DNA of 64,000 nucleotides, taken from the NCBI RefSeq assembly GCF_057098645.1, contig NZ_CM169472.1. One strand, 5' to 3'. How positions within the stretch are numbered: position 1 is the first letter of the stretch; each line of letters begins with the position of its first letter. Below, piece after piece: positions 54,101-63,100 of the stretch. The position numbers were made by a program.

Positions 54101-57100
54101 TATTCGTCCGGAGTATCTCGACCGCCTGCCTCATGCGTTCTCCGGCGGGCAGCGGCAACGCATCGCCATTGCCAGAGCACTCTCTTCGCAGCCTGACGTG
54201 ATTGTGCTTGATGAGCCAACCTCTGCGCTGGATATCTCCGTGCAGGCACAGATCCTCAATTTACTGGTAACGCTACAGGAAAATCACGGGCTGACTTATG
54301 TGCTGATTTCACACAATGTCTCGGTGATACGTCATATGAGCGATCGGGTGGCGGTGATGTATCTCGGGCAGATTGTGGAATTAGGGGAAGCGCAACAGGT
54401 GCTAACGGCTCCGGCACATCCATACACCCGATTATTGCTGGATTCCCTCCCCGCCATTGATAAACCACTGGAGGAAGAATGGGCATTACGTAAAACGGAT
54501 CTGCCGGGAAACCGCACGTTGCCGCAAGGCTGTTTTTTCCGCGAACGTTGCCCCCTTGCAACCAGCGGATGCGAAGTCCGGCAATCATTAGCAATAAGGG
54601 AGGACGGACGTGAGATCCGTTGCTGGCGGGCGCTGTAGGACGCGGCATCCGGCTATTGCATGTCTGCGGAAACGTTATGCGTCATAGGTTTTTTTTAACG
54701 TTTCCATCAACGCCTGCGCCGCAGTAGAAAGCTTATGGTGTGACGAACGCAGTACGCCTACTCGTCGCTCAATCACTGGATTATCCAGTTCCAGACACAC
54801 TGCGCCCAGTTCGCTCATCTGCCTGCGGCACAGCGCAGGCACAGCGCTTCCTCCCAAACCGTTTGCCACCAGCCGCCCAACCGTAACCAGTTGATGGCTT
54901 TCCAGCGCCACTTCCAGTTGCGTTCCACTTTGTGCCAACTGCTCCTCCAGCATCAACCTGACGGCTGACGGTCGCTGGAGGGTGATAAAATCGAGCGTCA
55001 GCAAATCCCGCCAACTCACGCGTTGCCGATTTGCCAGTCGTGAATCGGCTGGAACAATAGCGACAAACCGATCCACGCCCAGTGGGGTAAAATGCACATG
55101 GCCGCAATAGTCAGGTTCAAAGGCAATACCCATCTCCACACGCCCTTCGCTCACCATTTCGATCACCTGCTCATTCACCACATCGTGCACGGTGACATTA
55201 ATCCCTGAATAACAATCGCGGAAGGTTTTCAGCACCGGAGGCAGAACGTTGGCTGCAAATGACGGCATCGCTGCCACCGAGACTTTTCCCCGCCTGAGCG
55301 TGAATCGCTGACGCATGGCCTCCTCAGTGTTATCCCAGTCAGCCAGCAAAGGCCGTGCCATCGACAATAGCGTTTCCCCCTCCTGGGTTAATGTCACTTT
55401 TCGCGTAGTACGCAGCAGTAAAGCGCCCCCTAAGGCATCTTCCAGTCCTTTAATGGTAAGACTTAGCGCAGGCTGCGACATATTCAGCCGTTCACTGGCA
55501 TGGGCAAAGTTCAGAGTGTGAGCTACCGCTAAAAACGCGCGTAACTGTTTGATGCTCATTTTCATCTGGCACTCCGTTAACCTACTGAATACATTTAATT
55601 AACATTATATTGATAAATAATACAAATGAATGAGTCACAAATTTAAAATTAACAAATCATTTTTTGCCCTTAATGATGTTGAAAAGGACAACTGGAGGGC
55701 AACTGTATGGCTGGGTTGGATAAACGGGTCGCTACGTATCACGAGGCACTTGAAGGACTTACCAATGAGATGACGATTCTGGCAGGAGGTTTTGGCCTGT
55801 GCGGCATCCCGGAGAATCTGATTGCTGAAGTTCGCCACCGTGGAGTAACCGGATTAACGGTGGTTTCCAATAACTGTGGCGTAGATGGTTTTGGACTGGG
55901 TGTACTACTGGAAAGCCGACAGATCCGTAAAGTCGTCGCTTCTTATGTTGGCGAGAATGCTTTGTTTGAAAAACAGGTGCTTAACGGCGAACTGGAGGCG
56001 ATTCTCACACCACAAGGAACCCTGGCAGAACAACTGCGCGCAGGCGGCGCGGGTATCCCGGCGTTCTTTACTGCCACCGGTTACGGTACTCCCGTTGCCG
56101 AAGGGAAAGAAGTCCGCGAATTCAACGGTCGCCCGTACATCATGGAACAGGCTATCACCGGTGATTTTGCCCTGGTCAAAGGCTGGAAAGCCGACTGGTA
56201 CGGCAACGTGATTTATCGTCATACCGCGCAAAACTTCAACCCACTGATGGCGGCTGCCGGAAAAATCACCGTGGTGGAAGTGGAAGAAATAGTGCCACCT
56301 GGTGAACTTGATCCTGCCGCTATCCATACCCCGGGGATTTTTGTTAATCGCGTCATTCAGGGGCAATTTGAAAAACGCATTGAACAACGCACCCTTAGCC
56401 GCAAAGGAGCCTGACCATGTTAACCCGTGAACAAATGGCGATGCGAGTCGCCCGCGAATTGCGCGATGGCTATTACGTCAATCTCGGCATTGGTATCCCG
56501 ACCCTGGTGGCAAACTACATTCCTGACGGGATGGATGTGATGTTGCAGTCAGAAAACGGTTTGCTGGGAATGGGCGCATTTCCTACGGAAGACGAACTGG
56601 ACGCCGACATGATTAATGCCGGTAAACAAACCGTTACCGCGCGGAAAGGCGCGGCAATTTTCGATTCGGCGCAATCATTCGCCATGATCCGTGGCGGTCA
56701 TGTGGATCTGACTGTACTTGGCGCATTTGAAGTGGATGTGAATGGCAACATTGCCTCATGGATGATCCCCGGCAAGATGGTTAAAGGCATGGGCGGTGCC
56801 ATGGATCTGGTTGCCGGTGCCGAGAATATTATTGTGGTAATGACCCACGCCTCCAAATCCGGCGAATCCAAACTGCTTCCTGACTGTACCCTTCCGTTGA
56901 CCGGCGCCGGATGCATCAAACGCGTCTTAACCGACCTTGCTCTGCTGGAAATTGCTGACGGAGCTTTCATTCTGCGCGAGCGCGCGCCGGGAATCAGCGT
57001 TGCGGAAATCATCGCCAAAACCGCCGGTAAGTTGTTTGTGCCGGAACATGTCCCGGAAATGCAATTCAACTGAGGAATCACCATGCAGGACGTTGTTATT

Positions 57101-60100: not shown

Positions 60101-63100
60101 AGCTGCGCTCATTGCCGGAATTTTGCTGGTAGTGATTTTTGGATATCGCAATATTCATGGAAGACTGGCAGAAGGAAGCCGTACAGCGGTGGGCGGCGCA
60201 ATTCTGGCTGCGATGAACACCGCCTCAGAATATGGCTTCGGTGCGGTTATCGCCGCCCTACCCGGTTTTCTGGTGCTCTCAAAGGCGCTGGCCGCCATTC
60301 CTGATCCATTACTCAACGAAGCCATCAGCATCACCACACTTGCCGGAATTACCGGTTCAGCGTCCGGCGGGATGAGTATTGCTCTTGCGGCTATGTCCGA
60401 CACTTTTATTGCCGCTGCGCACGCTGCCAATATTCCACTGGAAGTTTTTCACCGCGTGGCATCTATGGCCAGTGGCGGCATGGATACATTGCCCCATAAC
60501 GGCGCTGTGATCACCCTGCTGGCAATTACTGGGCTGAGTCACCGTCAGGCTTACGGCGGCATCTTCGCAATTACGATCATTAAAAGTCTGGCCGTGCTGT
60601 TTATCATCGGCGTGTACTACACCACCGGCATTGTCTAAGGAAAATCATCATGAATTTACAAGGTAAAACTGCGCTGGTGACGGGGTCCACCAGCGGTATC
60701 GGACTCGGTATTGCTCAGACACTGGCAAACGCTGGCGCGCAAGTGATCCTCAACGGCTTCGGTGATGTTGACGCGGCAATCAATGCGGTTTCTCGTATGG
60801 GTAAAACGCCTGGCTATCATGAGGCAGACCTCAGCGATGAATCGCAAATTATCAACATGGTGGCCTACGCACGGCGGGAATTTGGCGGTGTGGACATTCT
60901 GGTGAATAACGCCGGGATCCAGTATGTCTCCCCGGTTGAATCTTTCCCTGTAGAAAAATGGAACGCCATTATCGCTATCAATCTCTCTTCTGTCTTTCAC
61001 ACCACGCGTCTGGCACTGCCAGAAATGCGCACTCGTAACTGGGGTCGGATCATTAACATTGCCTCTGTGCATGGGCTGGTAGCGTCGAAAGACAAATCAG
61101 CTTATGTTGCGGCAAAACATGGCGTGGTGGGACTCACAAAGACCATTGCTCTGGAAACTGCGCAGACGGGTATTACCTGCAACGCGCTCTGCCCTGGCTG
61201 GGTGCTGACGCCGCTGGTACAACAGCAGATTGATAAGCGCATTGCGCAAGGCGAAGATGCGGAAAGCGCGCGTGACGCCTTACTGGCAGAAAAACAGCCT
61301 TCTCGTGAATTTGTGACTCCGCAACAACTGGGTGAACTGGCGCTGTTTCTCTGTTCGGATGCGGCAGCACAAGTGCGTGGGGTGGCGTGGAATATGGATG
61401 GCGGTTGGGTAGCGCAGTAAGTGTTCGCCGGATGACGCGTCATCCGGCAATGCTTTACGATTTCAACTGGTAATCCAGCGTAATTTCCGCTTTCAGTACC
61501 TGAGAGACCGGGCATCCTGCTTTTGCTTTCTGGATGATGCCGTCAAAGGTAGAGGCATCAATACCCGGCACCGCAACTTCACTCTTCAGGGCGATTTTCG
61601 TAATCGCAAAACCGGCATCCACTTTATCCAGCGACACATCGGCGGTGGTATCAATCGATGTTGGCGTGAATCCCGCTTCCCCCAGCATTAATGAAAGCGC
61701 CATTGAGAAACATGCGGCATGCGCTGCGCCAATCAGTTCCTCAGGGTTGGTTCCTTTTTCGCCTTCAAAACGCGTGTTAAATCCATACGGCTGTTGGTTC
61801 AGCACGCCACTCTCGGTGGATACTGTTCCCTTCCCGCGTTTGATATCGCCTTCCCAGTGTGCCTGACCTTTCTTATGGATTGTCATTGTTGCTCTCCTGT
61901 GGGCTTAAAAAGGAAATTATAGACTACGTGAGAAACAGCACGAGGATAAGCAGGATATTCCGAATAAAATCCGGCAGAAAATATTACTTCTGCACTTAAA
62001 TTAAATTCCCACAATTGATAACGGGGAATATATAACCCAAAAGATATTGCATCAATATTAATCGAATAGTCCCAATCACAATCCCTATGAATATCATGGT
62101 GTTAAAATATAAAAATCATCAACCAGGACTAATCTTAACAACGAAGCGGCAAATATTTGCCATGCTGAATATGCTTTATAAATCTGCGATCCGTAGCAGA
62201 CACCATAAATACACAGACACGGAGAATCACTATGTTTACTTATTATCAGGCAGAAAATTCAACAGCAGAACCCGCTCTGGTTAATGCCATTGAGCAAGGC
62301 CTTCGGGCAGAGCACGGTGTTGTCACTGAAGATGACATTCTCATGGAGCTGACCAAATGGGTGGAAGCTTCTGATAACGACATCCTCAGTGATATCTACC
62401 AACAAACGATCAATTATGTGGTCAGTGGCCAGCACCCTACGCTTTAAGGTGCTATGCTTGATCGGCAACCTAATTTAGGGGTTTAGCACGTGTTTCTTCG
62501 CTACGGCGATGTTGTCCTTAAAACTAGCAACAGGATTGAGGAGTTAAAATGAAATCGAACCGTCAGGCACGTCATATTCTTGGACTGGACCATAAAATTT
62601 CTAACCAGCGCAAAATAGTTACCGAAGGTGACAAATCCAGCGTGGTAAATAACCCAACCGGCAGAAAACGCCCCGCTGAAAAGTAATTCATAACCATTAG
62701 TCCTCAATGACGATTAAACACCATTGCCTGCGCAATGGTGTTTTTGTTTTTATCTGCTTTATACTTGGGGCCGACGCCCTGGCGGTAAAGCAAAGACGAT
62801 AAAAGCCCCCAGGGATGGATATTCAAAAAAGAGTGAGTGACATGGAACCAAAAACAAAAAAACAGCGTTCGCTTTATATCCCTTACGCTGGCCCTGTACT
62901 GCTGGAATTTCCGTTGTTGAATAAAGGCAGTGCCTTCAGCATGGAAGAACGCCGTAACTTCAACCTGCTGGGGTTACTGCCGGAAGTGGTCGAAACCATC
63001 GAAGAACAAGCGGAACGAGCATGGATCCAGTATCAGGGATTCAAAACCGAAATCGACAAACACATCTACCTGCGTAACATCCAGGACACTAACGAAACCC

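Follow-up and report, generated by a model that had tools for sequence, protein, structure and literature searches.

Seven genes between ddpF and osmC on the chromosome of a minority of Escherichia coli strains probably make up a LysR-controlled operon for the uptake of 3-hydroxybutyrate and acetoacetate and their oxidation to acetyl-coenzyme A (acetyl-CoA). On the same reading, which we regard as likely given the gene content and the comparison across genomes, the cluster would be an ancestral chromosomal locus that most E. coli have lost. The sequence that we analyzed is a stretch of 64 kb (64,000 nucleotides of contig NZ_CM169472.1, RefSeq assembly GCF_057098645.1; hereafter the window), which matches the chromosome of E. 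coli O145 str. RM9872 at 100% identity.

The block at 54675-61420 contains seven intact open reading frames (ORFs), whose coordinates equal those of the RefSeq genes exactly, and it is bounded by the convergent genes ddpF (53712-54638, plus strand) and osmC (61455-61886, minus strand), both of which also match RefSeq. A gene for a LysR-type regulator of 296 amino acids (54675-55565, minus strand) is divergent from the other six, and an AT-rich control region of 141 bp (55566-55706, plus strand) separates them. On the plus strand, as in RefSeq, there follow the genes for subunit A (235 amino acids; 55707-56414) and subunit B (218 amino acids; 56417-57073) of a 3-oxoacid CoA-transferase, an acetyl-CoA C-acetyltransferase (thiolase II; 401 amino acids; 57083-58288), an NAD-dependent dehydrogenase of the HAD family with the domain pair 3HCDH_N and 3HCDH (307 amino acids; 58278-59201), a permease (463 amino acids; 59247-60638) and the predicted D-(R)-3-hydroxybutyrate dehydrogenase BdhA, a short-chain dehydrogenase/reductase (SDR; 256 amino acids; 60650-61420). 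RefSeq calls the permease a GntP family permease and the 307-amino-acid protein a member of the 3-hydroxyacyl-CoA dehydrogenase family, and the naming of the cluster genes by the Prokaryotic Genome Annotation Pipeline (PGAP) was already correct. The gaps among the six co-directional genes are 2, 9, -11, 45 and 11 nt, the negative value being the overlap of the HAD-family gene start with the thiolase stop. The ratio of nonsynonymous to synonymous substitution rates (dN/dS) is 0.01-0.13 across all seven genes, each of which is under strong purifying selection. The original prediction, which had been made from the window alone, had described seven genes between convergent neighbors, spaced tightly and with an 11-nt overlap of thiolase and dehydrogenase genes, and all of this was borne out. 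Its gene identities were also right, except that the protein which it had called a 3-hydroxyacyl-CoA dehydrogenase fails every curated equivalog cut-off and is unneeded for the D-route that it had drawn; the closest characterized relatives of this protein use substrates other than CoA esters. That route, from 3-hydroxybutyrate via acetoacetate and acetoacetyl-CoA to acetyl-CoA, is encoded by a gene set that is coherent by homology.

For BdhA, both CoA-transferase subunits and the thiolase, homology gives good support to the predicted functions. BdhA scores above the curated cut-offs of PRK12429 (370.7 versus 258 bits) and TIGR01963 (343 versus 307), and it matches over its full length both the solved 3-hydroxybutyrate dehydrogenase 5yss (488 bits) and the Pseudomonas putida beta-D-hydroxybutyrate dehydrogenase 2q2q (389 bits). 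The assignment as a D-(R)-3-hydroxybutyrate dehydrogenase is thus well supported by homology above curated cut-offs, and the enzyme is predicted to oxidize D-(R)-3-hydroxybutyrate to acetoacetate with NAD+. Subunit A of the CoA-transferase belongs with TIGR02429 (pcaI_scoA_fam; 244.8 bits versus a cut-off of 128.5) and stays below the cut-off of the AtoD equivalog NF007394 (198.9 versus 315), and subunit B reaches 327 bits against TIGR02428 (pcaJ_scoB_fam; cut-off 243.55). The translation of subunit B reads ...MLQSENGLLG..., with QSENGLLG at residues 44-51, and we take SENG to be the active-site glutamate motif of this subunit. These scores place the enzyme with the 3-oxoacid (ScoAB/PcaIJ) type rather than with the AtoDA equivalogs, and the two subunits would convert acetoacetate to acetoacetyl-CoA, with the CoA probably drawn from succinyl-CoA. 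The thiolase exceeds the cut-off of TIGR01930 (502.1 versus 240.55 bits) and falls just short of that of PRK05656 (677 versus 688); its translation holds the catalytic Cys (VCGSG), His (GHPIG) and second Cys (CVGGG), and it would cleave acetoacetyl-CoA into two molecules of acetyl-CoA. The complete seven-gene order of Escherichia is shared by Citrobacter and, at other chromosomal sites, by Klebsiella, Raoultella, Serratia, Enterobacter, Pluralibacter and Azomonas. Pseudomonas asuensis, Pseudomonas luteola and Halotalea have the six structural genes in a different order, and in P. asuensis a sigma-54 regulator takes the place of LysR.

The regulatory layout is consistent with one divergent LysR gene and one six-gene operon. 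All of the best NCBIfam matches of the regulator are full-length LysR-family models, each below its equivalog cut-off, and the Citrobacter ortholog carries the Pfam domains HTH_1 and LysR_substrate. The gene is conserved and divergently placed in all of the Enterobacterales loci, with a dN/dS of 0.02-0.06. Upstream of the CoA-transferase A gene, a promoter scan gave a single sigma-70-like site, with a -35 element TTAACA at 55649-55654 and a -10 element AATGAT at 55672-55677, the predicted start of transcription lies near 55684, and a GGAGGG ribosome-binding site precedes the ATG at 55707. Three boxes containing TTAAC (55576-55581, 55599-55603 and 55649-55653) are candidate LysR binding sites, and these boxes are conserved across Enterobacterales together with the -35 and -10 elements in an alignment of 13 taxa. 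The G+C content of this region is low (0.438 over 55500-55999). A single operon, as had been proposed earlier, is plausible because of the tight spacing, the 11-nt overlap, the one conserved promoter-like site upstream and a strong hairpin after the last gene. The LysR protein is a predicted activator, with acetoacetate or 3-hydroxybutyrate as its putative effector, and it may switch on the one promoter upstream of CoA-transferase A when a metabolite of the pathway is present.

The permease appears to be a divergent branch of the GntP family within the ion-transporter superfamily, to which it is tied only through intermediate relatives and its predicted fold. A search of 1.84 billion representative proteins returned 3,286 related clusters. 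When 28 full-length relatives at 31-71% identity were aligned, 19 of them matched Pfam GntP_permease (PF02447), with a best E value of 9e-17. The AlphaFold model has a predicted local distance difference test (pLDDT) score of 91.4 and resembles elevator-type carboxylate transporters of the ion-transporter superfamily, including MleN, TRAP SiaQM, INDY/DASS and the AbgT member YdaH. No other protein of the cluster is as conserved as the permease, which has 95-96% identity between E. coli and Citrobacter. Given that its gene adjoins bdhA in every cluster that we examined, we predict that it imports 3-hydroxybutyrate, and possibly acetoacetate, a role that its family would also suit.

The HAD-family enzyme is probably L-(S)-specific for 3-hydroxybutyrate, as the free acid or as the CoA ester. 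Its orthologs carry 3HCDH_N (PF02737) and 3HCDH (PF00725), and H140 and E152 align with the His-Glu dyad region of 4om8 and lambda-crystallin. All 21 of the NCBIfam models that the protein matches remain below their cut-offs: the best, FHMPC dehydrogenase, reaches 220.8 versus 500, Hbd (PRK05808 and related equivalogs) 180.9 versus 408, and the carnitine dehydrogenase models 112-142 bits versus 414-592. Among PDB entries, it matches 4om8, an FHMPC dehydrogenase, with 170 bits, Hbd enzymes with 139 and lambda-crystallin with 117. The stretch around the catalytic His, HFWHPPHFIPLVE, is closest in alignment to those of FHMPC dehydrogenase (HWSNPPHIIPMIE) and lambda-crystallin (HPVNPPYYIPLVE); aligned FadB-type CoA-ester enzymes, such as 1wdk, have HFFNPVHMMPLVE in the motif region. 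Residues 140-146 (window 58695-58715) read HFWHPPH, in which a His (His143) replaces the Asn of every aligned relative. This His is invariant in five aligned orthologs from Escherichia, Citrobacter and Klebsiella, and the motif recurs among homologs down to approximately 50% identity. The evidence from the sequence leans slightly toward a free acid as the substrate. Arguing the other way, the translational coupling of the HAD-family and thiolase genes in Escherichia and Citrobacter points to a CoA ester, as does the finding that in Brevundimonas and Caulobacter distant HAD-family relatives (approximately 30% identity) adjoin distant thiolase relatives (approximately 40% identity). In the rearranged clusters of Pseudomonas and Halotalea, the HAD-family gene stays linked to the 3-hydroxybutyrate genes and does not adjoin the thiolase gene. 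The neighborhoods of stand-alone homologs in P. viridiflava, Chitinasiproducens and Burkholderia (50-60% identity) were uninformative about the substrate, and a full-text literature search that covered few subscription journals found no characterized (S)-3-hydroxybutyrate dehydrogenase of the HAD-type family. The enzyme would most likely admit the L-(S) enantiomer to the pathway, either by oxidizing the free acid to acetoacetate or by converting L-3-hydroxybutyryl-CoA to acetoacetyl-CoA. We propose tentatively, and with rather more doubt than confidence, that it is a free L-(S)-3-hydroxybutyrate dehydrogenase that forms a stereo-complementary pair with BdhA, both feeding one CoA-transferase and thiolase behind a previously uncharacterized 3-hydroxybutyrate importer of the GntP branch. 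If this were true, Citrobacter, Klebsiella, Serratia and a minority of E. coli (including Shiga toxin-producing E. coli O145:H28 and excluding O157:H7) could use both enantiomers of 3-hydroxybutyrate in the gut, and the 3-hydroxybutyrate consumed could be derived from the host or from microbes.

Among 5,426 complete E. coli genomes, 231 (approximately 4%) carry the block, always on the chromosome, and 226 of these copies are at least 99% identical. Carriers include O145 strains (O145:H28 among them), IAI1, the enterotoxigenic E. coli (ETEC) strain E24377A, PCN033 and O166:H15 isolates. Carriage on plasmids in E. coli was rejected, since there is no E. coli plasmid copy among the complete genomes; the only plasmid matches are Klebsiella records at approximately 73% identity. 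The adjacency of ddpF and osmC in K-12, which the original prediction had stated, was confirmed: in MG1655 the two genes are 55 bp apart and the block is absent. Its suggested survey of presence and absence was carried out with the genomes above and found the block missing from K-12 and from approximately 96% of complete E. coli genomes. The same 55-bp gap is found in O157:H7 ATCC 43888 and in ST540. Comparison of filled and empty alleles puts the left junction directly after the ddpF stop (54638|54639) and the right junction at approximately 61426-61433; filled alleles have the block where empty ones have 34 bp that are found nowhere else in the window. Across the interval from dosP to osmC (window 48400-61450), three haplotypes exist, namely ddpXABCDF with the cluster, ddpXABCDF alone, and neither. 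In Nissle, which represents the last type, osmC follows dosP after approximately 190 bp (2334-2523 of the compared stretch), with no ddp operon and no cluster, and ST131 and other sampled genomes match only osmC in this interval.

In the simplest history, the ddpF-osmC site of the ancestor common to Escherichia and Citrobacter already held the cluster, which most E. coli then lost. Between ddpF and osmC, three contigs of the Citrobacter freundii complex carry all seven genes, arranged and oriented as in the window, and this synteny extends to approximately 18 Citrobacter species representatives, to Escherichia sp. E1V33 and to the divergent 'E. coli' SCPM-O-B-8794. One record labeled Salmonella enterica (P0108, GCA_016412205.1) has the Citrobacter-type layout of ddp, cluster and osmC, and its HAD-family protein is approximately 81% identical to that of E. 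coli; it is possibly a mislabeled Citrobacter assembly and was not used. Relative to Citrobacter, nucleotide identity is 75-83% for the cluster, 71-81% for the flanking ddp genes and 81-83% for the osmC-maeA region. We compared the flanks by nucleotide identity and took their synonymous divergence from osmC, given that paralogs confused hit selection for ddpD and ddpF. Synonymous divergence of the cluster genes is 0.25-0.44 from SCPM-O-B-8794 (osmC, 0.39) and 0.08-0.14 from 2013C-4282 (osmC, 0.16); from Citrobacter it is saturated, at approximately 1.4-2 for most cluster genes and 1.6 for osmC. RefSeq annotates no integrase, transposase or tRNA in the block, and its borders have no target-site duplication, the sole flanking repeat being a 14/15 match of a motif that resembles the core of repetitive extragenic palindromic (REP) elements. 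Apart from the AT-rich promoter region, the G+C content of the block (0.51-0.57) is like that of the flanks. An ancestral locus that was lost from most E. coli is suggested by the synteny in Citrobacter and Escherichia, the flank-like divergence, the lack of mobility genes and the low dN/dS taken together.

Homologous recombination through the flanks appears to move the cluster between lineages at times, given that within E. coli the cluster is 0.16-0.9% diverged compared to 1.4-2.8% for the flanks. Relative to the window, divergence of the cluster and of the flanks is 0.16% and 1.5-2.0% in IAI1, 0.5% and 2.2-2.8% in PCN033, 0.9% and 1.4-1.8% in EC1515, and 0.65% and 2.2-2.8% in O166:H15. The density of single-nucleotide polymorphisms shifts sharply within approximately 150 bp of the borders, and patches of clustered differences also occur inside the cluster, in the thiolase gene of PCN033 and at 55980-59210 in EC1515. 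The cluster of Escherichia sp. E1V33 has 98.1% identity to the window, compared to approximately 91% for its ddp and osmC flanks (6400-13180 of the compared stretch), a clear sign that this copy was exchanged with E. coli. Cluster and flanks diverge together in SCPM-O-B-8794 (92% and approximately 90% identity) and in 2013C-4282 (96.9% and approximately 96%).

Both borders of the block carry REP-like sequence, though of different kinds. On the right, between the convergent bdhA and osmC genes, lies a perfect 22-bp palindrome, GCCGGATGACGCGTCATCCGGC (61427-61448), whose left arm contains the right junction. It is unique in the window, where none is expected by chance, and it folds on both strands (-21.8 and -19.7 kcal/mol; z scores of -4.5 and -4.4). 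Other Escherichia and Citrobacter alleles have a hairpin of varying sequence at the same position. The palindrome lacks a T-run, and for this reason the terminator scan did not call it; it probably acts as a terminator in both directions for bdhA and osmC. On the left, the spacer between the ddpF stop and the LysR stop (54639-54674, minus strand) has one REP-core-like half-site: the motif GTAGGACGCGGCATCCGGC is present at 54635-54653, and within it the half-site GCCGGATGCCGCGT on the minus strand (54640-54653) has one mismatch to the REP-core consensus and matches the distal arm of the right palindrome, as a direct repeat, at 14/15 positions. A hairpin was rejected for this border, which alone has no significant fold (z score of +0.8), in contrast to the strong hairpin on the right. 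The original prediction had REP-like palindromic sequence at both borders; the 22-bp palindrome on the right stands, and the left border is instead a single half-site without a palindrome. Both arms of the palindrome match the REP core with two mismatches each, and a search for the core gave four matches in the window versus 0.5 expected, with a general REP-core consensus rather than one from a curated REP library. No Rfam family matched in or around the cluster, and a structured RNA there was rejected on that basis. Empty alleles form a different hairpin that reuses part of the same sequence (z score of -2.4), and the Nissle hairpin has a compensatory pair change relative to K-12. Since REP-like repeats are found at the filled, empty and Nissle alleles, they are associated with all three haplotypes, at every junction. 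A simple deletion between flanking direct REP-like repeats, considered as the origin of the common empty allele, was rejected on account of the 34 bp that this allele retains and of the osmC-proximal hairpin that B2 strains without ddp share with it.

Several further observations concern the same interval. BEC1-S17-ESBL-07 has an independent deletion that begins in the middle of the permease gene, takes out bdhA, osmC, bdm and sra and reaches into maeA (10609-11394 of the compared stretch); it spares the regulator, CoA-transferase, thiolase and HAD-family genes. The empty ddpF-osmC site of KMi006 has a 17-bp tandem duplication (GCTGTAGAGATGCTAAC, present twice) across the ddpF stop (approximately 830-870 of the compared stretch), which accounts for its match span of 1,256 bp; the same duplication is probable in two other genomes with this span. 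The BEC1-S17-ESBL-07 deletion and the KMi006 duplication make the ddpF-osmC interval evidently prone to rearrangement. At the 3' end of ddpF, a hypervariable patch (window 54591-54602) alters the last DdpF residues between alleles, reading TTAGCAATAAGGGAGG in the window and ST540 and TTAACGACGCGGGCTG in O157:H7, and further differences from the window lie across it in IAI1 and EC1515. The intergenic region between osmC and bdm, on the osmC promoter side (window 61937-62105), has approximately 20 substitutions in 170 bp relative to every E. coli compared, a density much above that of the surrounding genes. Frameshifted pseudogenes are annotated for dosP and ddpB in O157:H7 ATCC 43888 (12029-14418 and 16823-17844 of the compared stretch) and for ddpA in EC1515 (9633-11181 of the compared stretch), and in some lineages the ddp region seems to be undergoing decay.

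The original prediction had viewed the cluster as an accessory island, and a recent insertion between ddpF and osmC from another enterobacterium is the best of the competing explanations. The rarity of the block in E. coli would fit such an event, as would the unusual uniformity of its alleles, which is visible both in the 226 nearly identical copies and in the low divergence of the cluster relative to its flanks. The crossing of a species boundary in E1V33, the REP-like motifs that mark both borders and the 34 bp found in the empty but not in the filled allele point in the same direction. We nevertheless consider a recent acquisition unlikely. The cluster occupies the same position in the Citrobacter species and in two divergent Escherichia lineages, it has diverged from Citrobacter to the same degree as the core genes on either side, and its synonymous divergence from SCPM-O-B-8794 and 2013C-4282 matches that of osmC. 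Outside Escherichia, even the closest copies reach only approximately 77% nucleotide identity, so a recent donor from outside is not apparent, and the movement that we do observe resembles ordinary homologous recombination acting on an Escherichia allele that was already there. A mobile genomic island was rejected, given the lack of mobility genes, an attachment site, a target duplication or a shift in composition, and given the synteny with Citrobacter. The cluster is therefore accessory in present-day E. coli, as had been stated, and the synteny and flank-like divergence speak against its being an inserted foreign island.

Some of our observations weigh against an ancestral ketone-body operon as we have drawn it. 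The HAD-family enzyme is superfluous for the use of D-3-hydroxybutyrate or acetoacetate and fails all equivalog cut-offs, and part of the pathway logic is a guess for this reason. The permease protein has no Pfam-A, NCBIfam or PDB sequence match of its own, and we infer the inducer, the CoA donor and the transported substrate alike. A full-text search that covered few subscription journals found no literature on the cluster in E. coli, Citrobacter or Klebsiella. As for its history, the empty allele is not a clean deletion product, in that it keeps 34 bp that are absent from the cluster-bearing allele, and the type of hairpin that it has also occurs in B2 strains without ddp; on account of both, neither the direction nor the number of gains and losses within E. 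coli follows from it. The low diversity of the cluster in E. coli could also reflect a single recent reintroduction.

Two other functions were weighed against ketone-body catabolism. In the first, the pathway would run in reverse as a fermentative electron sink, in which two acetyl-CoA are converted via acetoacetyl-CoA and acetoacetate to 3-hydroxybutyrate for export, much like butanediol fermentation. Each enzymatic step is reversible in principle according to established enzymology, an acetoacetyl-CoA reductase of the HAD type would suit the reductive route, and the Klebsiella cluster adjoins a second LysR gene together with budA and alsS of acetoin/2,3-butanediol fermentation. However, this bud adjacency was checked in the Klebsiella locus only, and the neighbors in Escherichia and Citrobacter differ. 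The Klebsiella pneumoniae record p2B30155, in which the cluster lies beside budA and alsS (5847-15516 of the compared stretch), is a 120-kb record typed as a non-mobilizable plasmid with content that looks chromosomal. A LysR activator beside an uptake-type carboxylate transporter would be the usual layout of a catabolic operon, the CoA-transferase falls in the 3-oxoacid (ScoAB/PcaIJ) subfamily rather than with the AtoDA equivalogs, and in P. putida the genes for the 3-hydroxybutyrate dehydrogenase, permease and CoA-transferase are needed for catabolism, all of which makes reverse operation very improbable in our view. The use of another 3-hydroxy or 3-oxo acid, with the HAD-family protein as the entry dehydrogenase for L-carnitine via dehydrocarnitine (as in Pseudomonas DhcR-DhcAB) or for L-gulonate-type acids, is hardly credible: it would draw on the resemblance of this protein to the free-acid FHMPC dehydrogenase, to lambda-crystallin (L-gulonate 3-dehydrogenase) and weakly to carnitine dehydrogenase, and on a combination of LysR, two-subunit CoA-transferase and thiolase that mirrors P. 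aeruginosa dhcR-dhcAB-atoB, but a bona fide 3-hydroxybutyrate dehydrogenase is always in the cluster, which has no beta-keto-acid cleavage enzyme, thioesterase or betaine transporter. The carnitine pathway in particular was rejected for its low dehydrogenase scores and the missing cleavage enzyme; the carnitine route is outlined in a proteomics paper on Citrobacter (PMC12482172), which does not involve the cluster.

Ketone-body catabolism could matter in the gut, given that ketone bodies enter the gut lumen in fasting, on ketogenic diets and in bovine ketosis. Human colonic communities vary in their consumption of D-3-hydroxybutyrate (PMC7244492). A ketone-body operon that varies among strains is a plausible niche determinant, with carriers that include O145 isolates from cattle and humans, ETEC E24377A and the commensal IAI1. 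The cluster also distinguishes the related lineages O145:H28 and O157:H7 cleanly at the genetic level. For the reading of pan-genome "islands", it would be an example of an ancestral segment that poses as accessory and is polymorphic through deletion and homologous recombination. The general significance is modest because the biochemistry is textbook, and new biochemistry is likely to come only from the HAD-family enzyme and the permease subfamily.

Two groups of known enzymes are closest to the HAD-family protein. The free-acid branch, comprising FHMPC dehydrogenase (4om8), lambda-crystallin/L-gulonate 3-dehydrogenase (3ado, 3f3s) and L-carnitine dehydrogenase, has the motif H-x-x-x-P-P-[HY]-x-I-P in common with it and gives its best sequence matches, yet identity is modest and no equivalog cut-off is reached. 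L-gulonate 3-dehydrogenase (EC 1.1.1.45) also oxidizes other L-3-hydroxy acids. The HAD-family protein differs from this branch in having a His in place of the conserved Asn (HFWHPP) and in the translational coupling of its gene to the thiolase gene, which is more typical of CoA-ester enzymes. The clostridial and E. coli (S)-3-hydroxybutyryl-CoA dehydrogenases (Hbd and PaaH; 4kug and 3mog) share its two-domain fold family and His-Glu dyad and match it with 130-139 bits, below FHMPC dehydrogenase, and FadB-type CoA-ester enzymes (1wdk) carry HFFNPVH where it has the PP form.

For the pathway as a whole, the closest known system is that of Pseudomonas, which, like the cluster, has an SDR-type D-3-hydroxybutyrate dehydrogenase, an adjacent permease, a two-subunit 3-oxoacid CoA-transferase and a thiolase. 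In P. putida, the route consists of PP_3073 (the dehydrogenase hbdH), PP_3074 (the adjacent permease), PP_3075 (a sigma-54 regulator) and PP_3122-3 (the CoA-transferase atoAB), and these genes show fitness defects when carbon passes via 3-hydroxybutyrate (bioRxiv 10.1101/2020.07.04.188060; also PMC13390443). PP_3074, for which the name D-beta-hydroxybutyrate permease has been used, shows a mild fitness defect (bioRxiv 10.1101/2020.07.04.188060). We matched the P. putida proteins to the E. coli cluster by shared function and gene arrangement, not by sequence. The six structural genes stand together in P. asuensis and P. luteola, with 58-81% amino acid identity to the E. coli proteins. The enterobacterial cluster would be one operon under LysR, in contrast to the sigma-54 enhancer-binding protein of Pseudomonas. 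In the model pseudomonads, the genes are split over two loci, and a HAD-family gene is not known to belong to the pathway described there. P. aeruginosa PA2003-2005 and dhcR-dhcAB-atoB are related systems. Within E. coli, K-12 has atoSC-atoDAEB, with a two-subunit CoA-transferase, a thiolase and a transporter for the use of acetoacetate. The cluster differs from ato in its ScoAB/PcaIJ-type CoA-transferase, whose subunit A failed the AtoD equivalog, in its LysR-type regulator instead of the AtoSC two-component system, and in its GntP-type transporter instead of AtoE, and it adds two dehydrogenases that should open access to 3-hydroxybutyrate, which ato lacks. Collectively, the pathway of the cluster matches the Pseudomonas system for 3-hydroxybutyrate and acetoacetate and overlaps ato in function, and it is a textbook route rather than a new type of system.

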